From positions 1-38,183 of IMG/VR virus record IMGVR_UViG_2541047893_000009: a DNA stretch of 38,183 nucleotides. One strand, given 5' to 3'. The position numbers and the translations under genes are program-made. Positions within the stretch are counted from its first letter, which is position 1, and every line of letters begins with the position of its first letter. The notes under the pieces were generated by a model. That model had not been told where the DNA came from. It did not search any database and saw nothing but the letters and a program-made list of their open reading frames with translations. The stretch is from a virus. Taxonomy: Duplodnaviria; Heunggongvirae; Uroviricota; Caudoviricetes. This document shows, in pieces, positions 4,813 through 26,886 of the stretch.

Positions 4813-5046
4813 TTATTGCCTGAGAATTCCCTCACTGGCGAGATATGGATTTAGCTGTTTTCCGGCATCAGGTTCAAAATTCCAGCACCGCCAGCGTAGC
4901 TGCCCTTCAGCATTGTGGATAACCAGCCGGAAATGCGTTCCCTGATCATCTTCAATAAGCACATTGCGGTAAGCTGTTGTGACAGCCATCGCCTGTTCGC
5001 GTGAGAAAGGGCCTTCGGGCAATAAAACAGGGTGACAGTCCGACAT
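4813..5046 (-). CDS. DUF905-family small protein
   Basis: 77-aa ORF in the conserved position; family assignment from memory. Confidence 0.55.
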
Positions 5047-5051
5047 ACCGG

Positions 5052-5729
5052 CTATTTTCCGATAAATTCAACGCTGGCACCGGTGGCATTACCGTCAGCA
5101 CCAACCGTGACGGTCACTTTGTCGTACGCACGGTCTTCAGGATTGAACACTTCAAACTCAACCTTATTGCCTTTTACTTCGTAAGAGCCAAAATCAGCGG
5201 TTTCTGTTGTTTCCTCGTCATATTCCCGGGCGTATGCCTGCCGGGCAGCCTGCAGGACGGAATCTTTATTAATGGCGGGTGTCTGTTTCGGGGAAAAACC
5301 AGCAAGTGATGTGACAAATTTCGGACAGACCTTCAGCATATCACCGCGGGTGAATTCCATTCGTACACCAAATGCCTGTAAAACGGACACATCACGCTCT
5401 GCTATGGAGTGAACGGCTTTTTTGACCATTTCCGGCGCCTGTCCGACTTCCACCTCAACAGCCCTGAATCCCGTCTGCTGATTACACATTTGTGATGTGG
5501 GGATCAGGTTACCGTTAATACTGATACGGCTGCCCAGGAGCGTCTGTACACCATTCGGGCATCCCTGCATCAGGCCGGTAATACCAATCGTGCCATTTTT
5601 CAGCATTACCAGCGCCTGACCATCTTCCGTCATGGTCTGACACCAGCCGTTTTTGACAGCCCAGTTGCCGGCGGAGGCGGAGAATGATGCCACAGTGAAC
5701 AGCAGGGGAAAAAGAGCTCTGGTATTCAT
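5052..5729 (-). CDS. Secreted protein or lipoprotein of the YfjS/YafY type
   Basis: Start set at the internal ATG at 5729, giving the N-terminus [25 protein letters not shown], a signal-peptide-like sequence; the track ORF extends to 5834 without a hydrophobic N-terminus. Confidence 0.6.
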
Positions 5730-5876
5730 GACTGACCTCTGAAATGAACGTACGGTGTTATTGATAATGATGGAAGGTATGCAGTGACTGTTCAGGGAAT
5801 GACGTAGCCGTATATTTAGTTTTCTGTTCAACATATTGTCTCCATACCTGTTGGGACGGCTTTGGCAGGCCGGCGA

Positions 5877-6557
5877 TCACAGGTTAAAGGTGTTGATAAG
5901 TTTATGGATGAAAGAGAAATGTGGCAGGGCGGAGATAAAACGCTCTTCAGCGACCAGACTGTGGATGTGGCCTCTCCGTTCAAACCGTTCTGATGTCAGG
6001 CTGACTGATTTGATATCTGCCAGAGGAAAGACCTGCAGTTTTCCCTTCTGTAACGCGATCAGATACCAGCTACCGCTGTAATAAATGAGCCGGCAGGGCT
6101 CCAGTGACGGATACCATCGCTCAGCCATCAGAGAGATGTGGATACACTGTCTTATTGCCAGGATGAGTTGCGAGAAACACTCGGGGAACGTTGCAGTGAT
6201 ATCCGGCGCCGGTAGCCAGATAAGGCAGGGAGAGGGCTCCTGGTTGTCGGTAAGACAGGTTATCAGTCGTCCGTTCCGGAGCGGAAGTATCCGTGCGATC
6301 CCGGTATTCTGTATAAAAGAAAGCATTTCAGGGATCGCACCCGGGCTGCTCTGTCGTCTGAGGCTGTACCTGCCATTTCTGTACTCTAAATCCAGGTGAA
6401 CCAGACGCTGATGAAAATCGCGCTGTAAAGTACGTTCTGTAACGCCAAATTCATCTGACAGTGTTTTTAGTGACAGAGATTCTCCGGTCATCAGTCGGCT
6501 GATAATGAGTGATAAGCGAACCGCCAGGCGATCATGCCGGGAACGATTATCAGACAT
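5877..6557 (-). CDS. YfjR-like transcriptional regulator (N-terminal HTH, WYL-type C-terminal domain)
   Basis: 226-aa ORF; N-terminus RLAVRLSLIISRLMTGESLSLKTLSDEFGVTERTLQRD is HTH-like; position beside the GTPase as in CP4-57 yfjR. Confidence 0.7.
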   Translation of the reverse strand: MSDNRSRHDRLAVRLSLIISRLMTGESLSLKTLSDEFGVTERTLQRDFHQRLVHLDLEYRNGRYSLRRQSSPGAIPEMLSFIQNTGIARILPLRNGRLITCLTDNQEPSPCLIWLPAPDITATFPECFSQLILAIRQCIHISLMAERWYPSLEPCRLIYYSGSWYLIALQKGKLQVFPLADIKSVSLTSERFERRGHIHSLVAEERFISALPHFSFIHKLINTFNL

Positions 6558-6759
6558 AGATGTGCACTCCGTAAGAAAACATCTTTTATTTCATGATGTT
6601 ATTATGCATCATGATGTTGAAAGGATGTGTCGCATCCGGATAATCAGGAATAAAATGCAGCAGAAAAAATATTCTTTTAATTATCTGATTTTTAAGCATG
6701 ATTTCATAAAAAGAAGAATGCTCGTTAATCCAGCGACACATCCTGTCGGCGTGAGTGTG

Positions 6760-7644
6760 TCAGAACAGACGCTCCCACAGTGTGATCAGCAGGTGGATAA
6801 TGCGGTCCCGGGTTTTGCGCAGAAGCTGTAACATCCAGGCCGGAAAACTGAAACGGGCAACGGCGTCGTCAAAACTTTTCCCGATGGTTTCACCAAAAGT
6901 CTGTTGTGCGTGTTTCCGGGCCTGTTCAGAGCGGTTTTCTCCCCGGATATGTGAATACACCGCGCTGGTTGCCTGTGGTGGCAGTGCGTGGATCATCAGC
7001 GACACAAACGCCGGAAGGTTCCAGCCGACAGGTGCAGCAACGGAGAGTACTGGAAATGATGAAGGGAACAGGGTTGCCACCCGGGCTGTCACCGTCGCCA
7101 GTGAGAGCGCCTGCTGACGGGACGGGCATTTTTCTGTGGCATTCCATTCTTCAGCAGGAAACACGCGATCGGCATGGCTGAGAACAAACAGAAAACGCGA
7201 GGGATCTGCGCCTTCATTCAGTAAAAACTGATGCATGGTAATGTCGGCGGCATACGCGCGTTCATCTGCCCGCAGGATCCAGATAATCAGATCCAGTTCC
7301 GGTAGCAGCTGACGATAAAGTGTCCGGTATTCCTGATCATGCTGCGGTGTTTCACCAATGCCGGGCAGATCGACCAGCGTCATTCTGCGTTCACCGAGTT
7401 GCAGGGTAAGACGATGAGCCTGGCGGGTGCAGCCGTTCAGGGGATGCGTGGCGCAGATACGGGACTGAAAAATGGCATTACACAGGCTGCTTTTGCCGGT
7501 GCCGGATTTACCCATAATGCCAATCACGGGCTCGTAATGAATAACACTGTGGAGATGTTCAAGGATTTTCTGGCGAATTTCTTCAGGAAGAAACGTCAGA
7601 TATGATTTCACTTGTGCGGAGAGGGAAGAATGGCTGAATGACAT
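6760..7644 (-). CDS. YfjP/YkfA-family GTPase (50S ribosome-binding / dynamin-like GTPase family)
   Basis: 294-aa ORF with P-loop GIMGKSGTGKSS and a DLPG G3-like motif; characteristic first gene of this island module. Confidence 0.8.
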   Translation of the reverse strand: MSFSHSSLSAQVKSYLTFLPEEIRQKILEHLHSVIHYEPVIGIMGKSGTGKSSLCNAIFQSRICATHPLNGCTRQAHRLTLQLGERRMTLVDLPGIGETPQHDQEYRTLYRQLLPELDLIIWILRADERAYAADITMHQFLLNEGADPSRFLFVLSHADRVFPAEEWNATEKCPSRQQALSLATVTARVATLFPSSFPVLSVAAPVGWNLPAFVSLMIHALPPQATSAVYSHIRGENRSEQARKHAQQTFGETIGKSFDDAVARFSFPAWMLQLLRKTRDRIIHLLITLWERLF

Positions 7645-7746
7645 ACCGGTATCCTGTTGATTTCACTGAACCGGATCACACTAATCCGGTTTATCATTCA
7701 GGTAATATGGGCGTGAAAAAATCTGGAGTGACAAAGTTCGGGAGGA

Positions 7747-8700
7747 GTGATGGCATCACTGTCGATTAATACGCTACGCCGAATGAGCATTTGTAAAAGT
7801 CAGGCCTGGAAAGATACCCAGCGAATACTGAAGCGTAGTGGACTTGTGTACAGAGGGGAACGGTCAGAATCGTTTGATCCTGAGAAACATTTTAATCGTT
7901 ATACGGTGCGTTATCTGTACCTGCTTAACATAATTGCGCTTAAGATAAGGTCGGTTAGTAAATTTTCCTGTTGGATCGAGGTGGGACAATGCCATCGTAT
8001 GACTGGTAAACATTTATCTCTTAATGCCCCGCCTTTTATGCTGATTCCGCGTAGTATCCGGAGAAAAGTGGATGGATTCAGACAGTCAAAAGGTGAAGCA
8101 ACCCCAAAATCGGCTCAACCGTTCACGGGCAGTTTGTATGAGGTTTTGAGCAAGGAGAGCGATTCAGCTAAGCTGGACGCATGGATTGCTGAACTGCCTC
8201 TGAACTTGCAGGAGGAGGGAAAGGAAATCTCAGTCATGGGATTTAGTCCACGGGCTGTGGCCCGACCTGTTCTTCGGTCAGCATCCCCGACGTTTGAACT
8301 GTTTTATCAGGAGTATCAATCCCTAAGATTAAAATCTGTTTTTAAATTTGAACCAAGATTTGAACAACTTTTAACAAGACTGAGCTTTAGAAAACAATCA
8401 ATTCTCAGAAAACAACAATACAGGGTTAAATCGCAATTACTGGAGAGACTGGGGAATGTGTTGTTTTTCACGTCGCTTTATAACCAGGGATGTTTAGAGG
8501 AGTTTATAAATGCACTTGTGGAAAAGGAGGACATTTATCTGAAAATGTCCCCTGGGGAGGAAAAGGTGAAAGCACACCAGAAAATGGTTAACTACATTGA
8601 AGCGTTCTGCAACAAAATGACGGAAAAATACCTGATGCCCGCAGCAAGCAGACACTACAAAAAGAAGAAAATCGCTAGGAGCGAAAGTGGTGAAAGTTAA
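7747..8700 (+). CDS. Hypothetical protein, uncharacterised, AT-rich cargo gene
   Basis: 317-aa ORF preceded by a strong Shine-Dalgarno (GGGAGGAG); the ATG at 7750 is the likely start; no recognised motifs; lower GC by eye than flanking DNA. Confidence 0.6.
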   Translation: MMASLSINTLRRMSICKSQAWKDTQRILKRSGLVYRGERSESFDPEKHFNRYTVRYLYLLNIIALKIRSVSKFSCWIEVGQCHRMTGKHLSLNAPPFMLIPRSIRRKVDGFRQSKGEATPKSAQPFTGSLYEVLSKESDSAKLDAWIAELPLNLQEEGKEISVMGFSPRAVARPVLRSASPTFELFYQEYQSLRLKSVFKFEPRFEQLLTRLSFRKQSILRKQQYRVKSQLLERLGNVLFFTSLYNQGCLEEFINALVEKEDIYLKMSPGEEKVKAHQKMVNYIEAFCNKMTEKYLMPAASRHYKKKKIARSESGES

Positions 8701-9485
8701 TCCAGTCTACCGTACAGAATCAGTTGTTCCAGAATAGCCTGCTGTGTTGTTTTCCGCTCTCTGGTCAGTCTGTCCAGAGCGCTTTTTGCGGATGGCGATA
8801 TCTTTACGTTGATTTGTACCCGTTTATCTTTTTTTCCATCGATAAACTGTTTTCTGAATGCATTGTGCATCTTGTCGAAAAATCTTTCTTTTGCAGCGAA
8901 TCCTAGGTGAAATTCTTTTGGCGTCAGTAAACAGGGTGTGTCTGTGGGGAATAACATTTTTAGTAAAACTACAATGGCAATATATCTTTCGTTATCATTT
9001 ACAGGATTAAACCAGGAAAGATATGTGGGTGAGATACGTGCATCAATATATTCCCATGCCCATTTCAGTTGTTCGGTATTCTTTTTAAGCCATTTGGCTT
9101 CGTTTCTCTTTTCGAGTCCCAGCCAGTTTTGATGCATTATTGAGATAATCCGATCTGCTTCCCCATAAAGGATTAACGCATTAATCCATTTCCCTATAAC
9201 ATTCAGTCGTGTTTCATGACTTGAAGGAATAATTGTCATGGGGTTATCCTTCATAACGATCACCCCCTTCAAGGCAGAATTGAACTCAGATTCATTATTA
9301 AGTTTAAGTTTTTCGGGAACTGTATGAGACATAATTAACCAGAACCAGAATGCTGCAATTTCATTTTTTCTGATCCATTCAGGTATGTGATTATCTGCCA
9401 GATTATTATCATTCAATAAATGCTCAGTTGTTTTATTTTTCCAGTCATATCTATTCACGTTATAACCGCCTTTATATTGTTTCAT
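8697..9485 (-). CDS. Hypothetical protein with a C-terminal ribbon-helix-helix-like segment, AT-rich cargo gene
   Basis: Start set at the ATG at 9485 (MKQYKGGYNV...), which has GAGG about 10 nt upstream; the track ORF runs to 9572. The C-terminus RVQINVKISPSAKSALDRLTRERKTTQQAILEQLILYG resembles an RHH DNA-binding fold. The stop overlaps the stop of the convergent 7747-8700 gene (shared TTAA at 8697-8700). Confidence 0.55.
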   Translation of the reverse strand: MKQYKGGYNVNRYDWKNKTTEHLLNDNNLADNHIPEWIRKNEIAAFWFWLIMSHTVPEKLKLNNESEFNSALKGVIVMKDNPMTIIPSSHETRLNVIGKWINALILYGEADRIISIMHQNWLGLEKRNEAKWLKKNTEQLKWAWEYIDARISPTYLSWFNPVNDNERYIAIVVLLKMLFPTDTPCLLTPKEFHLGFAAKERFFDKMHNAFRKQFIDGKKDKRVQINVKISPSAKSALDRLTRERKTTQQAILEQLILYGRLD

Positions 9486-9610
9486 CTGATTACGCCTCAA
9501 TCGTTTTCTTTTCTGGTGATTTTCACCATCACATGTCAGTTGTATATGCAAGGGAATCAATAAAAATATCACCCTGCAAGCACTTCAAAGCTGATTATGG
9601 GGATATTCTA

Positions 9611-9664
9611 GAACTATTCACAAAACTATTCCAGACATATCAAGAACTATTTCTTGATCTATTC
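9611..9664. repeat. Four direct repeats of RAnCTATTC upstream of the 8697-9485 gene
   Basis: gaactattc (9611), aaactattc (9623), gaactattt (9644), gatctattc (9656); spacing 12, 21, 12 bp. Confidence 0.4.
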
Positions 9665-10164
9665 ATAATAAAATAAAACATGCTATCAACTACGGATCAT
9701 ATCCTCCTTAGGTGTGTCGTTGTACTGTTCGACTGTTCTTGTGGTCAGATTAACAATCTGAAGAGTAAAAGCGACAGTAATCTGTCTGTTATAGTGGCGA
9801 TAAAAACACTGACTGCGCATCCTGTATGTGAAATCCTGTCATGTAGAGCAGTAAGCAATGACAGACATGCATGTTATATGTGAAGGGGCCGGGAGACGAC
9901 ATAATCAGTATGGCTGTCATTCTGGTTGTAAAACGCGATCACTTTCCGGGGGTAAAAGATGATATGGAGGTTGACAAACGGTTTGCTTCGGATTGTCTTT
10001 TCTGGGGCCTGAAGTACGGGGGCAGAAAAATAATTCCAGAGTAAATCTGCTCTGTTTTTAGGACAGAAAACTCCATGCTGGCTGTAAAAGTGAAAAATTA
10101 ACACCTAGTATGTATGGAAGTCTGAAGATATTGAGAATGTCGGTATGATACTATATACACATAT

Positions 10165-10285
10165 TTTACTAAGTATTTTTACTAAGCATTTCAGTAAGTG
10201 TTATACACGTATTTTCTACTAAGTGTTTTACCAGACATACACGTGTTTTCATAAACAGCCCTATAAGTGTTTTCATTAAGCATTG
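10165..10285. repeat. Iteron-like cluster of ACTAAG[TC]-containing repeats
   Basis: ttttactaagtattttt, actaagcatt, cagtaagtgtt, ctactaagtgtttt, tataagtgttttcat, cattaagcatt within about 120 bp in an ORF-poor AT-rich tract. Confidence 0.4.
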
Positions 10286-11147
10286 CTGTACACATTGCTT
10301 TGTCTGAAACACATCCAGTTTAGTAAATCTTTACGTTAGCTAAAATCAGTTTAAAGCTGCTGTAAAACCTTTTTGTTTAAGCAATCAATCTGCTATTCGA
10401 TTTTACTGATGTTGCGTTTAACCTTTTCTGAGTTTTTGTGTTTTTAGTCGTTAACCTGAGACAAGTGTCTTTACGTAAAAACGCAAATCCGACTGAGATA
10501 ACCTGGTGTGATTTACGGTGTGCTTGCGACGATTTTGTTAAATGGTTCTATGGATGATTTTGTGACGATGAGATTGATGAGATGATTAACTGGCCCTGGT
10601 GTTTTTTCTCAGTGCAAGGTGATTATCTTTATCATAAGGCTCTTTTCAGAAAAAGCGTGATGATTGGTTCTGGTGTTTTGATTCAGATGAGATTTACGTT
10701 ATCGATGGTTAATCGTTTTTATGGTGTGTTGAAAAGTAACGTTTTCAGGATAAGAAAATCGATTCTGATATTGGTGAACTTTGTTCTTGTGGCAGAGTTA
10801 TCTGTAAACAGGTTTTAAGTGCGCTATTCGGCTCTGTGATTGAGTTGTGTGGTTAAGCTGTAGGTTTTGGTGTTGTTGTTGATTTGCATTGCCAGGAAGC
10901 GTTCTGGTTGCGTTTCTGGTGTTTTGTTCGAATGTTCTGTGGATCCTTTTCCCTTCAGGCTTTTCTCGTCGTCCATGTCGTTTTTAAATCTATTCATGCT
11001 GTTGTTGCGTGTTTTGCTGCTGTGTGCAGGATTATCTTTTCGTTCCGGGATGGTTTGTTCCGTTTCAATCACTCTTAATCAGAGAGTTGTAGCATTGCTC
11101 AATGCCGGATGCCGTAAAGTTTTACCGCGTTGATGAATGATGTGAAG

Positions 11148-11280
<133 letters not shown>

Positions 11281-11309
11281 CAGAACTCGCTCCAGCCTGA
11301 TTGCAGATA

Positions 11310-11699
11310 TTACTCTTTTTTCTCCGTATCTACATCGGGTTCATCAGCAAATAGCTTGCCCTGCATCCGATCCAGTTCTTCTTTTCTTACCCGCTTAACC
11401 ACGCTGTAGACCCACTGAAGCGAAACACCAAATTTGCGGGCCAGTTCATGGTGGTTACGTCCGTTAAACTCCCTGAAGATTTCCCGGTCGCGCTGACTGA
11501 CCTTCCATACCATGCCCATCGGGAAATAAACGTTTTGCCCGCCCCAGACCTGCATCATGCGGTTCGCGACGGCCTGACCAATCTGGTCGGCAATTGCGGG
11601 CTCAATATCAATAATCTCGCGAACGGTCTCAGAGGTATGCTGTGCCAGTTCCACCAGGAGTTCCGGCCCTTTACTTCGAAACTGATTCAGGTCGCTCAT
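11310..11699 (-). CDS. mor: Mor/C-family transcription activator (middle/late gene activator)
   Basis: 129-aa ORF, the same length as Mu Mor; the C-terminal HTH region ...REIFREFNGRNHHELARKFGVSLQWVYSVVKR is typical of the Mor/C family; last gene of the early operon. Confidence 0.85.
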   Translation of the reverse strand: MSDLNQFRSKGPELLVELAQHTSETVREIIDIEPAIADQIGQAVANRMMQVWGGQNVYFPMGMVWKVSQRDREIFREFNGRNHHELARKFGVSLQWVYSVVKRVRKEELDRMQGKLFADEPDVDTEKKE

Positions 11700-12123
11700 G
11701 TTTTACTCCCGCAGCTCTGTGCTGCCACTTCTTCAGTTTCTCAATAACACTGCTTGCCTGTTCAGTATTGAGCCAGCGCAGGGCGCTGATGCCCGTTTCC
11801 CGCTTGATCCACCGCGCTAATGCATTTTCTGAACGGTCACGAACAATGCCGGCAGCAGCCATTTCAAGCCATAGCGCACGGATTTTCCTGGACTGCGGAT
11901 GGTTATCCAGCGGTAAACCGGAGCTGGCTTTTCCGGCAGGCTTAACGCGAAAGCCTTTCCTTTTCATGGATTCCAGCACGCAGTTTAGTTGTGTGGTATC
12001 CATTCCTTTGGTTGAGGCTTTACCGGTCAGCCCCTGTAACATCTGGCGGTAGGTGTCTTCATCCATACCCAGTTCATTACGGGCAATATGAATGAGCTGG
12101 ATAAGACGTTGTTTAGTCATCAT
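11671..12123 (-). CDS. GemA-like protein (Mu gp16 family, DUF1018)
   Basis: Start at the ATG at 12123 (MMTKQRLIQLIHIARNELGMDEDTYRQMLQ...); lies immediately upstream of and overlapping mor, as gemA does in Mu; family from memory. Confidence 0.65.
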   Translation of the reverse strand: MMTKQRLIQLIHIARNELGMDEDTYRQMLQGLTGKASTKGMDTTQLNCVLESMKRKGFRVKPAGKASSGLPLDNHPQSRKIRALWLEMAAAGIVRDRSENALARWIKRETGISALRWLNTEQASSVIEKLKKWQHRAAGVKHERPESVSK

Positions 12124-12328
12124 CGTTGCTCCTTTTACCTGCGCCACCGATATAATCGACATATAAAGGAAGCGCCACAGGCCAGCACAGGAACATCACC
12201 GACCAGCTAATCCAGTAGCCGGCACCACTGTAACGTGAATAAAACCCTGAACGGCGGTGCAGTTCAGCAGTACACCAACCGGCAAAACAATACCAGAACA
12301 GGGCACATACAACAGATTCAGCCGTCAT
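12113..12328 (-). CDS. Small hydrophobic membrane protein (about 71 aa)
   Basis: Internal ATG at 12328 gives MTAESVVCALFWYCFAGWCTAELH...MFLCWPVALPLYV with two hydrophobic segments; tightly packed in the early operon. Confidence 0.4.
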   Translation of the reverse strand: MTAESVVCALFWYCFAGWCTAELHRRSGFYSRYSGAGYWISWSVMFLCWPVALPLYVDYIGGAGKRSNDDD

Positions 12329-15151: not shown

Positions 15152-16318
15152 TTAAACCCCTTTGACAACGTCAGCGTTGACCTGTGGAACCCCGATTTCA
15201 GCGGCCAGATTCATGGCGGCTATTACCAGGTTACTGACGGCCAGCGGATACAGCAGGCTGACCATATTTTTACGATGACTTCCCGGATTGCTCAGGCGGG
15301 CACGTATGGCATCCACTGCGCTGGCGTCCATAATGTCCGTCAGTTGTTTACCGGCCCGTTGCAGTTTGAACGTCAGAAACTCTTCAAGGTTATTGTCCAG
15401 AGGCAGAAGTTCGACCACCTCACAGCGCTGAACGACTTCACGGACTTCCATATTGCGTTCAGACAGTTTTGTCGCCAGTTCCGGCTGGCCAATCAGCACG
15501 ATGGACAGCAGTTTTTTGAAACCGGACTCCAGCTCAAAAAAGCGTTTGAGGTGTTTCAGTGTCGGAATGGGCAGACTGTGGGCCTCCTCAATCACCAGAA
15601 CGTGGCTGAACCCCGCCTGGCTGCTGTCTTTCAGGACGCGATGCAGCTGGCGAAAGCGGGCGTCCTGACTGCGTCTGATGCTTTCCAGTGGTGCGATGGT
15701 ACTGATAATGGCTTCGGCAATCGCTGCTGCCTTCAGGGTTTTCCCTTTCACATCGTTGTCTTCCATAGCGATGATGTATGGCTCGATAACAATCACCGGC
15801 GCATTCTCGCGGTTGATACGTTCAGTCAGGTCACGGCGCAGCGTGGATTTACCCGCACCGGACTCACCGATGACGGCCATAAACCCACCATGACGGGCTG
15901 TCTGGTACAGCGCCTCACGCACGTAGCGAATGTCCGGAGTGGTGAACACATCATCAGAACCCTGCATGGCTTCGTCGGCGAACGGGTCACGGAAAAGACC
16001 AAACGCTTTTTTGGTTGCTGGAAATAACACCTGTTTTTTGAGTAACATATTCTCTTCCTCACTGAGGCTCGTTTTATCTGTGGTACCCGCTGTACGGGGC
16101 GTGGCCGCGCCCTGTACAGCATCAAAACTCTTCGTTGTATCAATCCCCTGACTTTCCAGCCAGGACGCAAGACGCCGGCGCACTTCTCCGGGGCTGGTGC
16201 GGGGCCACGCGTTATGATTCACAATCTGGGCCAGCGTGGCCTCAGAAACATCGACAGCTCTCGCCACCACCGCCTGTGGAATACGGGCCTCTTTCAGTTG
16301 CTGCTTCAGTACCAGCAT
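15152..16318 (-). CDS. MuB-like AAA+ ATPase (transposition target-DNA activator)
   Basis: Walker A GESGAGKST and an N-terminal HTH-like segment; start set at the ATG at 16318, which has a strong SD (GAGGAGGG); the track ORF starts at 16345 and would overlap the transposase gene; follows the transposase gene as in Mu. Confidence 0.85.
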   Translation of the reverse strand: MLVLKQQLKEARIPQAVVARAVDVSEATLAQIVNHNAWPRTSPGEVRRRLASWLESQGIDTTKSFDAVQGAATPRTAGTTDKTSLSEEENMLLKKQVLFPATKKAFGLFRDPFADEAMQGSDDVFTTPDIRYVREALYQTARHGGFMAVIGESGAGKSTLRRDLTERINRENAPVIVIEPYIIAMEDNDVKGKTLKAAAIAEAIISTIAPLESIRRSQDARFRQLHRVLKDSSQAGFSHVLVIEEAHSLPIPTLKHLKRFFELESGFKKLLSIVLIGQPELATKLSERNMEVREVVQRCEVVELLPLDNNLEEFLTFKLQRAGKQLTDIMDASAVDAIRARLSNPGSHRKNMVSLLYPLAVSNLVIAAMNLAAEIGVPQVNADVVKGV

Positions 16319-16328
16319 GTATCCCTCC

Positions 16329-18098
16329 TCAGTTGCCGTTAACAATGCTGATAACGCTGCTGCGGGCCGGCGTGGTCAGCGTGGCCATGACTTCATCCAG
16401 TGCGGCTTCCGGTACGCCGTCCGGATACTGTGCCGTTAACTGGCGGTAATGTTCCGGCGTCCAGGTAAGGCCGTCGGCGCTGAACTTATCGCGCAGGGCT
16501 TTCGCGGCCTCCACATGAGTCATGGGACGTTGTTCAGTGCGCGGCCCGCGTACGTCAGAGGCCTGACCTCGCTTCGGCATATAGGCCGGAAGTGTGGCGT
16601 CATCAATATGTTTATATGGGTCAAGCCGCCCGCCGAACGGCAGCGCCTTCGCCTTGCGTGCGGCAGCTGCATCTGCGGCGTTGTCTGTACCGGTGACCAG
16701 CGCTTCGGTTTCTTTTGCCGCCATCTGCGCCGGGGTTTCCGGCAGGGCTTTGTAACTTTCGCCAAATACCGCCGCGCCTTCAGCAAAGCCAAACTCGTTC
16801 TTTCTGACTTCTTCGACCAGGAAGAACGTCTCGTGGCCGTCCTCACCGGTCAGAACCACCTGTGCCACATCGCTGCGCCACGGGTTACGGGTAATCATCA
16901 GTTTTTCACCGACCAGTACGCCCGGTACCGTTGATACGTCAAATTCAGTGCCCCGGAACGAGACACGAAGTTTTGGCGTGACTTTGCGGAGTTCTGGTGC
17001 CGCCACAGCCAGTTCACGACATACCTCAACGGAAGGCGCTTTTTTCAGCTGCTCAGCAGTAATCTTCAGCCAGATATCCGTGCGGGTTTTACCGTGGCGG
17101 CTGTGAACAGCCGTGGCGTTAAAGTGGCTGCGCCATTTCGCGGCCAGCGCATTGAGTTCTTCCAGACTGTGAACCGGCCGGAACTTCAGACCCGGCTCCA
17201 GCTTGCGTTCGATAATGTCCCGCGCCTTTTCCACCTGTCCGGTGGCGCGGGCGTTATGCGGCTTGTGCGCTATCAGGTCGATGCCCAGTGAGCGGCACAT
17301 GTTTTTCGTCATACCCGCGGTGTTTGCCGAGCCGGGGTCGAGATAGAGTATTTTTGGCACGCCGTGCAGCACGTCTGCGCCGCCACGCTCCTGCATGGCG
17401 TTGATAAGCACAGAACACAGGTTCTCACCTGATTCCGCGCCCGTCACATACTCAACGTAAATCCAGCCGCTGGCATGGTCGGTAATCTCGTAACTCCACA
17501 CGCGGTCACTGGCGATACGGGCAAGGTTAGCGGGCTTGTTCTTGTAGAACTTCGCGCTGTCCATCACCTGCAGCCCTTTATGTCCATTGCTCAGGTAGTA
17601 AAGCGTGCAGAGTGAGGCGTCAATCTGCCAGACATGATTGGGGTGCAGACTGGCCACTTCGGTATGCGGTGCAGGAGCATCCAGTTGTTCCGGGTGCAGG
17701 CCATAGTTACGCAGAGCACGGCTGATGGCATCTTCAGACAACGGGAAAAACTCACCGGTGGTTTCATCTGTTCTGCCTGCGGTGATAAAGCCGTTAGCCC
17801 GCAGGGTTTCCACTGCATCTGCGATGGAATAGAGGCGTTTACCGTTCTTGCGGGTGGCCTCACGCAGTGTGGCAGATATCAGCGCGGCTTCGTCGCGGGT
17901 CAGGGCGCTGCGTCCGGCATCAGCGCGTTTTTTGCGTTTATCAGTCACAGAGACCTCCTTCAGCCTGCGCAGCAGAGTGGCGCGGGACATGCCAAGTTCA
18001 GCACAGGCAGCGTCGTATATTGCACCGCGTTTACCATGCCCCGCGTCACGTGCCGCGCGGGCGACATAAACCAGTCGTTCAGTCAGGGCAGCATTCAT
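16329..18098 (-). CDS. DDE transposase of the Mu A type (N-terminal HTH, rve/integrase catalytic core), shorter than MuA
   Basis: 589-aa ORF with a retroviral-integrase-like core region (WQIDAS..., LYLDPGSANT...); paired with the downstream MuB-like ATPase and Gam. Confidence 0.85.
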   Translation of the reverse strand: MNAALTERLVYVARAARDAGHGKRGAIYDAACAELGMSRATLLRRLKEVSVTDKRKKRADAGRSALTRDEAALISATLREATRKNGKRLYSIADAVETLRANGFITAGRTDETTGEFFPLSEDAISRALRNYGLHPEQLDAPAPHTEVASLHPNHVWQIDASLCTLYYLSNGHKGLQVMDSAKFYKNKPANLARIASDRVWSYEITDHASGWIYVEYVTGAESGENLCSVLINAMQERGGADVLHGVPKILYLDPGSANTAGMTKNMCRSLGIDLIAHKPHNARATGQVEKARDIIERKLEPGLKFRPVHSLEELNALAAKWRSHFNATAVHSRHGKTRTDIWLKITAEQLKKAPSVEVCRELAVAAPELRKVTPKLRVSFRGTEFDVSTVPGVLVGEKLMITRNPWRSDVAQVVLTGEDGHETFFLVEEVRKNEFGFAEGAAVFGESYKALPETPAQMAAKETEALVTGTDNAADAAAARKAKALPFGGRLDPYKHIDDATLPAYMPKRGQASDVRGPRTEQRPMTHVEAAKALRDKFSADGLTWTPEHYRQLTAQYPDGVPEAALDEVMATLTTPARSSVISIVNGN

Positions 18099-24749: not shown

Positions 24750-25294
24750 TGGCCAGACGCAGCACAATAGAAAAGCTGCCGGAAGACGTGCGCCGCTGGC
24801 TTGAACGGGCGCTGACTGAATCCGGCTTCAGCGGGTATAACGAGCTGGAGTCCCTGCTGCGTGAGCGGGGGTACGTCATCAGCAAATCCGCTATCCATCG
24901 CTATGGACAGAAGATTGAGCGCCGCTATGGTGCTATCCGTGCGGCAACAGAAGCGGCCCGCATGCTGATCGAAGGCGCAGCAGACGATCAGGATGCGCGT
25001 TCGGAGGCTGTGATAGCCCTTATTCAGACCGAGCTGTTCGAGAGTATTGTCCAGTTGCAGGAGGCGGAAGAAGGCGAAGTCGATCCTAAAGAACGCGTGG
25101 CCCTGCTGTCGAAGGTGGCGAAGAATGTGGCTACGCTGTCCCGCGCGTCCGTCAACCTCAAAAAGTTCCAGTCTGAAGTACGGGCCAGAGCGCAGCAGGC
25201 AGCCAGCAACGCCGAGAAAATTGCCCGTAAGGGGGGACTGTCAAGCGACGCAGTACAGGCGCTTCGTCGCGAGATTCTGGGGATTGCCACATGA
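24749..25294 (+). CDS. Terminase small subunit candidate (Mu gp27-like, DUF3486)
   Basis: 181-aa ORF directly upstream of and overlapping the large terminase; N-terminus MARRSTIEKLPEDVRRWLERAL...GFSGYNELESLL recalled as Mu gp27-like. Confidence 0.6.
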   Translation: MARRSTIEKLPEDVRRWLERALTESGFSGYNELESLLRERGYVISKSAIHRYGQKIERRYGAIRAATEAARMLIEGAADDQDARSEAVIALIQTELFESIVQLQEAEEGEVDPKERVALLSKVAKNVATLSRASVNLKKFQSEVRARAQQAASNAEKIARKGGLSSDAVQALRREILGIAT

Positions 25295-26886
25295 CAAAAT
25301 CATCCGGAGTGATTTTAAACGCCGCTGGCGGCGGCCCCGAAGGGATGAGTCCCATGGACGGGAGGAATAACCTTGCTCCCGTTTTGCCTGATACCTCGGC
25401 GCTGGATGCCCCTCCCGTTCTGTTGCCTTACCAGCAGCGCTGGGTGGCAGACACCTCTCCGCTTAAGGTGATAGAAAAGAGCCGTCGTACCGGTATTACA
25501 TGGGCTGAGGCATCCGATAACGTACTGACCGCCGCCTCTTCTGCGCCAGCAGGCGGGATGAATGTGTATTACATCGCTTATAACCAGGACATGACCGTCG
25601 AATACATTCAGGCGTGTGCGATGTGGGCACGGGCATTCAACTATGCGGCCAGTGAAATTGAAGAAGGATTCTGGGAAGAGGACGACGACGACAAACACAT
25701 CAAGACTTACACCATCAAATTTCCTGACTCCGGCTTTCGTATTGTTGCGCTCTCCAGCCGCCCGTCTAACCTGCGTGGCCGTCAGGGTATTATTGTTATC
25801 GACGAAGCGGCGTTCCATGAGCAACTGGACGAACTGCTGAAAGCGGCGCTGGCGATGCTTATCTGGGGGGGAAAGGTACGCGTTATCTCCACCCATGACG
25901 GTGACGACAATCCGTTCAATACGCTTATCGGGGATATCCGTGCCGGACGTCAGGGAGGCAGCATACATCGCATCACTTTCCGGGAAGCCGTATCTGAGGG
26001 GCTGTTCCGGCGCGTCTGTCTGCGCACCGGGAAGGAATGGTCGGAGGCATCCGAGCAAGCCTGGATGGCATCGGTGTACAAATTCTACGGTGCCGGCGCA
26101 TCCGAAGAGCTTGACTGTATTCCGGCCAACGGTGGCGGTGCCTGGCTGTCCCGTGCCCTGATAGAGTCCCGCATGTCCGCTGATACGCCGGTATTGCGTC
26201 TGACCTGCAAGGAAGGTTATGAACTGCTGTCTGATGAGGTTCGCTTCCGCGAGACGCAGGACTGGCTTGATGAGTATCTGAAACCCTTGCTGGAGGCACT
26301 CCCCACTGATGCCCGCTCTTTCCTGGGGCGCGACTTTGGCCGTAGCGGTGATTTGTCGGTGGACTATCCCCTGCTGCAGGAGAAGAACCTGGTACGACGC
26401 GTGCCATTCGTACTGGAGCTGCGTAACGTGCCGTTCAGACAGCAGGAGCAAATCACCTGGTATCTGATGGATGGCCTGCCCGGTCTGCTGGGTGCAGCGT
26501 TTGATGCCCGTGGTAATGGTGCCTATCTGGCTGAATACGCCATGCAGCGCTACGGCTCCAGCCGGGTTCAGCAGGTGATGCCAACCGAAGGCTGGTACCG
26601 GGAGCATATGCCTCCGGTCAAAGCTGCACTGGAAGACGGTAACCTGGTGGACTTACCAAAGGATGAAGACACACTGGATGACCTGCGGGCCGTTCAGGTG
26701 GTGAACGGTGTCCCCCGCGTACCGGAGCAACGCTCAAAAGCAAAGGCTGACGGTGGTAAACGCCACGGGGATTCAGCCATCGCACTGGCGCTGGCGTATT
26801 TCGCCAGCCGTGAAATTAACAAAGGGCCGGTGAAGGCAAGCTCACGCCGTCGTCGTCAGGCGGCCCGTATGCTGGAGGGATTCTGA
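25291..26886 (+). CDS. Terminase large subunit (Mu gp28-like)
   Basis: 531-aa ORF with an ATPase region (KSRRTGITWAEAS) and a nuclease-type C-terminus; position upstream of portal. Confidence 0.85.
   Translation: MTKSSGVILNAAGGGPEGMSPMDGRNNLAPVLPDTSALDAPPVLLPYQQRWVADTSPLKVIEKSRRTGITWAEASDNVLTAASSAPAGGMNVYYIAYNQDMTVEYIQACAMWARAFNYAASEIEEGFWEEDDDDKHIKTYTIKFPDSGFRIVALSSRPSNLRGRQGIIVIDEAAFHEQLDELLKAALAMLIWGGKVRVISTHDGDDNPFNTLIGDIRAGRQGGSIHRITFREAVSEGLFRRVCLRTGKEWSEASEQAWMASVYKFYGAGASEELDCIPANGGGAWLSRALIESRMSADTPVLRLTCKEGYELLSDEVRFRETQDWLDEYLKPLLEALPTDARSFLGRDFGRSGDLSVDYPLLQEKNLVRRVPFVLELRNVPFRQQEQITWYLMDGLPGLLGAAFDARGNGAYLAEYAMQRYGSSRVQQVMPTEGWYREHMPPVKAALEDGNLVDLPKDEDTLDDLRAVQVVNGVPRVPEQRSKAKADGGKRHGDSAIALALAYFASREINKGPVKASSRRRRQAARMLEGF

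Follow-up and report, generated by a model that had tools for sequence, protein, structure and literature searches.

What kind of genes occupy the interval beside the YfjP-like GTPase gene of a CP4-57-like island: exchangeable anti-phage cargo, or resident parts of the island itself? The question arises from a 38,183-nt stretch of DNA deposited as a tailed-virus record (IMG/VR IMGVR_UViG_2541047893_000009; the whole stretch is called the window here), in which a plus-strand and a minus-strand gene, named gene A and gene B, converge on each other next to such a GTPase gene. A preliminary description of this DNA, made from its letters, had seen in them an uncharacterised, AT-rich pair filling a variable slot of the island and a plausible defence hotspot. 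We find that both are functional protein-coding genes under purifying selection, and that they are backbone genes of an enterobacterial island family, not variable cargo. As to function, we tentatively posit that B is a ribbon-helix-helix (RHH) regulator that controls its own expression and serves as a switch at the divergent control region of the island; A is basic, and its predicted fold has no counterpart in PDB or among viral structures.

The open reading frames (ORFs) listed for the window run from 7747 to 8700 on the plus strand (317 aa from a GTG) and from 8697 to 9572 on the minus strand (291 aa from a GTG). Gene A is annotated from the ATG at 7750, one codon after the GTG (7750..8700, +, 316 aa, RefSeq WP_000157734.1), and gene B from the ATG at 9485 (8697..9485, -, 262 aa, RefSeq WP_000816188.1), a start that we adopt because B homologues share an MKQY beginning. 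The stop codon of A is the TAA at 8698-8700 and that of B a TAA read as the reverse complement of 8697-8699, the tetranucleotide TTAA at 8697..8700 being common to both stop codons on the two strands. A contains 43.0% GC and B 37.3%, both lower than the GTPase gene (53.6%), the neighbouring genes (50-54%) and the remainder of the island (52.4%). Computed coordinates and composition thus agree in full with the ORFs, stop overlap and AT-richness reported earlier. Both proteins are basic (pI 9.9 for A, 9.5 for B), and homology between them can be dismissed (hhalign probability 0.2%).

Three lines of evidence identify A and B as real genes and not chance ORFs. At the local composition, an open frame of their length would arise by chance with a probability of about 1e-9 (316 codons, A) and about 4e-8 (262 codons, B); full-length homologues of both reach down to 23-30% identity; and Nei-Gojobori dN/dS lies below 1 in every segment of either gene (overall 0.1-0.65, with one short segment at 0.85), amounting to 0.28-0.85 in A, 0.32-0.55 in the N-terminal part of B and 0.11-0.29 in its C-terminal part (unsaturated dS). 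One might otherwise take the two frames for decaying remnants or mis-called ORFs, without present function, in AT-rich, H-NS-silenced DNA, given their composition, a "hypothetical" annotation going back about 25 years (RefSeq labels both "hypothetical protein" in the identical island of E. coli ATCC 11775), and the occasional interruption by an insertion sequence: ISEc52 splits A in three complete genomes (SF-088, CH436 and PE144; the SF-088 locus is L027, 451-2654), B remaining intact. That reading is effectively refuted by the conserved motifs of both families and by the dN/dS values, and the intact full-length homologues down to 23% identity and the confident structural model of A also speak against it.

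Neither protein belongs to a known family. Searches run on single sequences and member by member returned no match for A or B in Pfam, NCBIfam, PADLOC, PHROGs or PDB sequences (the last by sequence and profile), except for a weak RHH signal at the C-terminus of B. Phage genomes gave no match to either protein and viral contigs none to A, and searching the literature by accession, gene name and island module turned up no functional work on either. In the Shigella SRL pathogenicity island, described in 2001, orf42-45 beside the GTPase gene were listed as having "no similarity" (PMC6980539); their homology to A or B was not confirmed. The term "uncharacterised" therefore stands for both genes; the companion claim, that they are unlike island core genes, does not, since both are syntenic with the island backbone.

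Positionally, A on the plus strand followed by a convergent B on the minus strand recurs in 13 distinct contexts (window/L001, L002, L005, L008, L011-L015, L021, L022, L024 and L026). Direct comparison in nine of them showed the partner to be genuinely homologous to B (blastp E 1e-10 to 1e-135); beside distant A homologues the B relatives score E 1e-10 to 1e-27 by blastp, and B copies of Serratia and Klebsiella reach profile E values of 1e-33 to 1e-45 (hmmsearch). The contexts span the E. coli alleles L005 (A 81%, B 71% identity), L002 (A 57%, B 28%) and L022 (A about 99%, B N-terminus 29-48%), further E. coli alleles of both genes in L024 and L026, the metagenomic locus L008 (A 30%, B 27%, with the GTPase at about 50-56% and gene order unchanged), the metagenomic loci L011-L015 (A 24-29%, B 25-31%), and a Serratia metagenome-assembled genome (MAG), L021 (A 37% identical to P0102, B at profile E 1e-44). 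Every long context has the GTPase gene and/or the WYL operon on the A side and a YagK_YfjJ/REP_ORF2-G2P gene, with or without AlpA, on the B side; in L008 and in the further locus L029, an alpA-like gene is B's immediate divergent neighbour. Defence cargo is not usually locked to one backbone down to 25% identity; as the position of A and B is so locked, both behave like core genes. The proposal of variable-slot cargo is accordingly not borne out: position, orientation and backbone neighbours stay the same from E. coli to the Serratia MAG and the metagenomes, at 23-30% identity, which brings the pair close to the "island core families" that the preliminary description had named as an outcome contrary to its own view.

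What is conserved in the arrangement is convergent adjacency, the stop overlap being a lineage-specific compaction and not the core of a mechanism. The 4-nt overlap is kept as TTAA in the E. coli alleles L002, L005, L022, L024 and L026 and as CTAA in L008, whereas in L011-L015 and L021 the stops are 13-121 nt apart, several of these gaps holding hairpins that, by eye, resemble bidirectional terminators. Antisense interference arising from the overlap, which had been suggested for testing, is therefore not a conserved mechanism, the distant pairs having no overlap.

The two genes are also separable. Three islands (L018-L020, from an ST131 strain and two other human isolates), with GTPases 94-97% identical to that of the window, carry at the GTPase-adjacent place a single distant A paralogue of 376-407 aa and no B (L018 6070-7200; L019 and L020 5986-7209). 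This long paralogue is related to A at profile E 1e-12 to 1e-7 and at 25% blastp identity over the motif region. It has an N-terminal extension of about 100 aa with a C-x4-C...C-x2-H pattern; possibly, to judge from this pattern, a zinc-binding DNA-binding module there stands in for B. Conversely, two islands on Klebsiella plasmid records hold a B homologue of 322-365 aa and no A (L028, 5743-6711, profile E 5e-43; L029, 5614-6711, profile E 2e-33). In both, B opens the array: the GTPase or WYL/DUF932/antirestriction/RadC genes follow it in the same direction, and an AlpA-like gene diverges from it. It follows that B is co-oriented with, and heads, the leftward operon, A being the only gene that opposes it. 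A is thus not an obligate partner of B, and the occurrence of each gene alone argues against an obligate two-gene defence or toxin-antitoxin (TA) system.

Within B, two parts can be distinguished. Residues 206-262 (8700..8870, -) form a predicted RHH DNA-binding domain, with the strand QINVKIS and helices at 231-243 and 248-257, and residues 1-205 (8871..9485, -) a Trp-rich helical N-terminal domain, whose deeply diverged alleles are exchanged by recombination. In the window protein, aa 215-257 match RHH_1 (PF01402) and RepB-RCR_reg (PF10723) at 13.3 and 13.0 bits (cut-offs 20.5 and 21), and there is a further weak match to NCBIfam PRK13702, an IncFII RepA2-type regulator. At the family level, 7 of 10 members match PF10723 (best E 2e-5) and 5 of 10 match RHH_1, at the same C-terminal position, so that the RHH-like ending noted for the window protein is upheld there. 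The strand pattern Q224-I-N226-V-K-I229-S is conserved across the family and is followed by the two helices of the AlphaFold2 (AF2) model, giving the strand-helix-helix order of an RHH fold from sequence pattern and model together. The strand itself is absent from the monomer model, as expected because RHH domains are obligate dimers. The N-terminal domain is homologous in all family members, with invariant W37, R93, I97, W132, L133, W142, W144, P161, E166 and A170; B homologues returned by large protein searches came from Escherichia or metagenomes. Like HEPN RNases, this domain is all-helical and, in one allele, contains an R-x5-H string, which had prompted the suggestion of a HEPN-like fold. 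That suggestion fails: RIISIMH (aa 112-118) occurs in the window allele only, homologues having W, K, E, R, I or Q in place of R112 and Y, R or Q in place of H118, and the helical bundle of the HEPN fold was not recovered.

Comparison with RHH regulators of the CopG/Arc/MetJ kind (RHH_1, RepB-RCR_reg, CopB/RepA2) places the likeness in the last 55 or so residues of B, with their strand-helix-helix order and recurrent profile matches, and the difference in the layout, the RHH of B lying C-terminally, after an approximately 205-aa Trp-rich helical domain without known relative. As in autoregulated RHH repressors, B adjoins its own putative promoter, with short direct repeats.

Protein A is less readily interpreted. 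Its close homologues are 68 clustered Escherichia sequences at 50-99% identity, an exhaustive profile search added about 16 full-length relatives at 23-31%, and a scan of genome contigs returned a single locus, that of Serratia (L021). Invariant residues of the family are W20, Q24, L56, R105, K106, L129, Y130, E188 and F240. The N-terminal 130 aa have a pI of 10.5. A is probably a nucleic-acid-binding protein. Its AF2 model is confident (pLDDT 83.8, pTM 0.82) and has no structural neighbour in PDB or BFVD. Structure prediction, which had been proposed as a check on both proteins, thus gave for A a good model without a match and for B a mediocre one whose helices fit an RHH domain.

The N-terminal domain of B behaves as an allele cassette. 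Between the window and L022, the DNA is 100% identical over about 7100 to 8460 and 86-96% identical on to 8860, drops to 24-68% as far as about 9700 and is back at 92-100% thereafter; the breakpoints are sharp, and the low-identity interval (about 8860 to about 9700) corresponds to B residues 1 to about 205 together with the upstream region and promoter of B. At the protein level the same pair is 99-100% identical over A residues 1-230, 95% over the RHH domain, 48% over B residues 101-205 and 29% over B residues 1-100, with dS of 0.0-0.011 in A 1-230, 0.2 in the RHH domain and 1.49 in B 1-205. Across allele comparisons, dS in the N-terminal domain ranges from 1.49 to saturated, and alleles with only 27-48% identity left in that domain still agree at 91-95% of amino acids in the RHH domain. 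Since a dS of at least 1.5 stands beside flanks of about 0.01, these are old alleles moved by recombination and not products of recent positive selection. In the comparison with L002, alignment is lost between about 8516 and 9848, the GTPase still being 93% identical. Co-variation of the two proteins was considered and rejected, as L022 keeps A 1-230 unchanged beside a replaced B N-terminus.

Counts over 5426 complete E. coli genomes trace the same boundaries. The GTPase gene occurs at 2507 places, in 1871 of these genomes (about a third), the A N-terminus at 810 places, the A 3' end with the B RHH domain at 607 and the B N-terminus at 535, so that the segments are nested in that order. The locus is thus the most allele-rich spot of the island, through the allelic diversity of a resident gene: the expectation that it would vary across E. 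coli genomes was right, and the expected exchange of cargo was not what varied.

Upstream of B lie the sequences on which a regulator might act. A promoter scan places a putative B promoter, TTGTGA-18-CATAAT, at 9623..9594 on the minus strand, overlapped by four AACTATTC-like repeats on one strand at 9612, 9624, 9645 and 9657 (spacing 12, 21 and 12; region 9594..9664). Four copies within 53 nt make a marked local cluster (repeat family D1), from which they would be a candidate RHH operator. L005, L022 and L024, islands with the same RHH domain, also have the motif upstream of B, and L002, with an RHH domain only 40% identical, lacks it; other islands have repeats of their own upstream of B, which in AT-rich DNA is weak evidence. 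Farther right, a conserved, unannotated non-coding block of about 210 nt (9848..10060, +) carries an inverted repeat (9857-9877/9901-9921) and, at its end, a hairpin (10037-10054) that resembles a terminator and precedes a T-run. The block is 79-98% identical even among islands with unalignable B, recurs in 1688 E. coli genomes (2168 places), may be part of the B control region, and could be a small RNA or a DNA-level site (ori or oriT); it has no Rfam match, and folding of 9845-10062 was unconvincing (z -1.7 and -2.3). A 57-aa ORF within it (9871-10044) is not regarded as coding, since the islands differ there by indels of 1, 2 and 13 nt.

Other features of this intergenic DNA are a 67-aa ORF divergent from B (9680-9883), called in L022 and L023 (about 80% identical) and not conserved in L024; iteron-like direct repeats at 10150-10290 with a TACTAAGT(A/G)TTTT-type unit (families D3, D4 and D7), which sit in the spacer (1.6 kb, 38% GC) that separates B from the Gp2-like gene; and a strong strand skew at 10500-11000 (GC skew +0.33, AT skew -0.36). 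On the other side, A is transcribed divergently from the GTPase operon across a 105-bp intergenic region (7645..7749). The start codon of A is preceded there by a GGAGG ribosome-binding site, and the region also holds a perfect 8-bp inverted repeat, AACCGGAT-N7-ATCCGGTT (7669-7676/7684-7691), possibly an operator that serves the WYL regulator or A. The repeat carries little weight, because the same scan did not find it in L008, L021 or L026.

How might these parts work together? B stands at a divergent control region, with the accessory operon to the left and the Gp2-like/AlpA replication-excision module to the right. In the model that we favour, B would be a DNA-binding regulator in which a C-terminal RHH domain of CopG or CopB-RepA2 type is fused to the Trp-rich helical domain; its dimers would bind the AACTATTC repeats overlapping the promoter of B, and B would thereby repress both itself and rightward transcription, acting as an island maintenance switch. 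The N-terminal alleles, recombined while the RHH domain stays, would determine the signal or partner protein by which B is released. From these sequence features we infer DNA binding, the operator, the repressor or switch role and the sensor role alike, and several observations weigh against them. The RHH match of the window protein falls below the Pfam thresholds (13 bits vs 20.5-21), and the AF2 model of B is mediocre (pLDDT 65), with a poor prediction of the RHH part in the monomer. Over the window as a whole the AACTATTC motif shows no enrichment, short repeats arise easily in AT-rich DNA, and L022 has kept only one or two copies. With 13 contexts the sample is small and depends on which homologues were returned, and the role of A is left unexplained by a regulator model. 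Finally, a master repressor predicts varying DNA specificity, and the most variable part of B is the domain that does not bind DNA; a variable domain of this kind would fit a sensor, though only by analogy.

That analogy comes from mobile elements: SaPI Stl is the master repressor of a phage satellite, and temperate phages have mosaic immunity regions. B has the position and the predicted DNA-binding domain expected of a satellite- or prophage-type master repressor, since it diverges from the Gp2-like/AlpA genes wherever the context is long, and it resembles these systems both in lying within a divergent control region beside AlpA and Gp2-like excision/replication genes and in joining a conserved, predicted DNA-binding part to a highly diverged, recombining second domain. 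It differs in lacking any sequence or fold relation to them, in having an RHH and not a helix-turn-helix domain, and in that A is not found in viral contigs. To our knowledge no helper phage or inducer has been described for CP4-57-like islands. A stronger version of the regulator model, which we regard as improbable, would make B the RHH master repressor of these islands, with each N-terminal allele recognising a different phage- or plasmid-encoded inducer and A a counter-acting factor on the opposite strand, in a bistable switch. Were it true, "cryptic" islands, including the kps/ireA virulence island, would be inducible, mobilisable satellites.

The nearest competitor to a switch would keep the DNA binding and change its purpose. 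RHH proteins such as TraY, TrwA and VirC2 are relaxosome or origin accessory proteins, VirC2 carrying its RHH C-terminally, and B may, in their manner or in that of CopG, mark an ori or oriT in the AT-rich spacer for the Gp2-like HUH nickase, with A a further DNA-binding or processing factor, so that the pair would serve replication or transfer of the excised island and not transcriptional switching. We judge this unlikely, though much is consistent with it: the best profile matches of B are to replication-regulator RHH families (PF10723 RepB-RCR_reg and PRK13702 RepA2), the RHH is C-terminal as in VirC2, both proteins are basic, an HUH-type (YagK_YfjJ/REP_ORF2-G2P) gene always neighbours B, and the conserved block with its inverted repeat lies between B and the Gp2-like gene. 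Sequence alone cannot separate RHH accessory factors from RHH repressors. Yet no origin or nick site was identified, similarity to TraY, TrwA and VirC2 is limited to the RHH pattern, B in the B-only islands is co-oriented with and heads the accessory operon and not the Gp2 operon, and the islands with only a long A paralogue keep the Gp2-like gene without B.

The idea of a defence locus drew on K-12 CP4-57, where yfjP, as stated in the preliminary description and confirmed here, is immediately preceded by rnlA-rnlB, to which the AbpAB defence genes are adjacent (PMC10732053). The equivalent interval there holds abpAB, yfjM and rnlAB, and the A and B profiles find no homologue or remnant in it. 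RnlAB and AbpAB share with A and B their relative position, between the Gp2-like gene (yfjJ) and the GTPase gene (yfjP), and differ in all else: there is no homology, RnlAB is a co-directional operon, and A and B are syntenic backbone and not lineage-specific cargo. An abortive-infection-like anti-phage system, with B as sensor or regulator and A as effector, could draw further on the AT-richness and allele richness of the pair, on a hypervariable B N-terminal domain such as a conflict interface would have, and on conserved R, K, Y and E residues of A that could be catalytic. We nonetheless give such a system a low probability: PADLOC-DB v2 returned only isolated chance-level matches (E >= 0.011) for 22 A-family and 10 B-family members, the synteny is fixed on one backbone in every long context and not scattered as movable cargo would be, each gene is found alone, the genes are convergent and not an operon, neither is found in phage genomes nor A in viral contigs, and the variation of B consists of ancient alleles under purifying selection (dN/dS 0.3-0.55), not of fast positive selection. 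RHH domains are common in type II antitoxins, and this, with the adjacency of the genes and the presence of another TA pair, CbeA/CbtA, in the island, might suggest an addiction module in which a toxin A and an RHH antitoxin and autorepressor B stabilise the island. Such a module is very improbable: convergent orientation, found in 13 of 13 contexts in place of a co-directional bicistronic operon, argues against it, an RHH at the C-terminus of a 262-aa protein is atypical, A resembles no toxin family in Pfam, NCBIfam, PADLOC, PDB or BFVD, the proteins do not co-vary in L022, and long A paralogues occur without B (L018-L020) as B does without A (L028, L029). The three genomes with an ISEc52-split A and an intact B are uninformative here and no help to the TA idea.

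As for the surroundings, the match between the window and the ATCC 11775 island extends to 11148. The island is a CP4-57-like integrative island of Enterobacterales, the window copy being the kps/ireA-associated one of E. coli ATCC 11775 and S88; in the strains examined the kps capsule and ireA siderophore-receptor genes adjoin it, and it carries TA genes. The YfjP/YeeP-type GTPase gene (6760..7644, -; Pfam MMR_HSR1; RefSeq annotation of the identical island) is the first of the leftward backbone operon, followed, all on the minus strand, by the WYL/HTH (helix-turn-helix) regulator (5877-6557) and genes for a 225-aa protein, DUF905, DUF932, antirestriction, RadC/JAB, DUF987 and CbeA/CbtA proteins. 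Between the WYL regulator gene and the next gene, at 5833-5876, is a sub-threshold Rfam match to c4-a1b1, targets of the P1/P7 C4 antisense RNA (18.6 bits vs a gathering threshold of 46.7, E 0.4, probably chance); Rfam returned nothing else over 5000-12000. To the right of B, on the plus strand, the island continues with an "inovirus Gp2 family" (YfjJ-like) gene. Exactly between the AT-rich spacer and the Gp2-like gene that follows it in ATCC 11775, the window holds an inserted Mu-like transposable prophage (11149-38183), with genes for Mor (11310-11699), GemA (11671-12162), an AAA MuB-like protein (15152-16345) and an rve transposase (16329-18098) on the minus strand and for the terminase (25291-26886) on the plus strand. 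Its gene order is odd for Mu, in that mor adjoins the junction and early and late genes diverge from about 19.4-19.6 kb.

For the biology of these islands, the analysis reveals no new defence system; what it points to are likely control genes of a common island family, together with an unusual allele cassette at the level of a single domain. About one in three complete E. coli genomes has an island with this type of backbone, and the family is poorly understood. At the junction of the island's two transcription modules sit two conserved, unnamed protein families, which makes them obvious candidates for a control switch. A offers a confidently predicted structure without a PDB or viral counterpart. 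B would, from its predicted domains, represent a new architecture among the RHH regulators of mobile elements, and by combining a predicted DNA-binding domain with a cassette-like specificity domain it may provide a handle on island induction.

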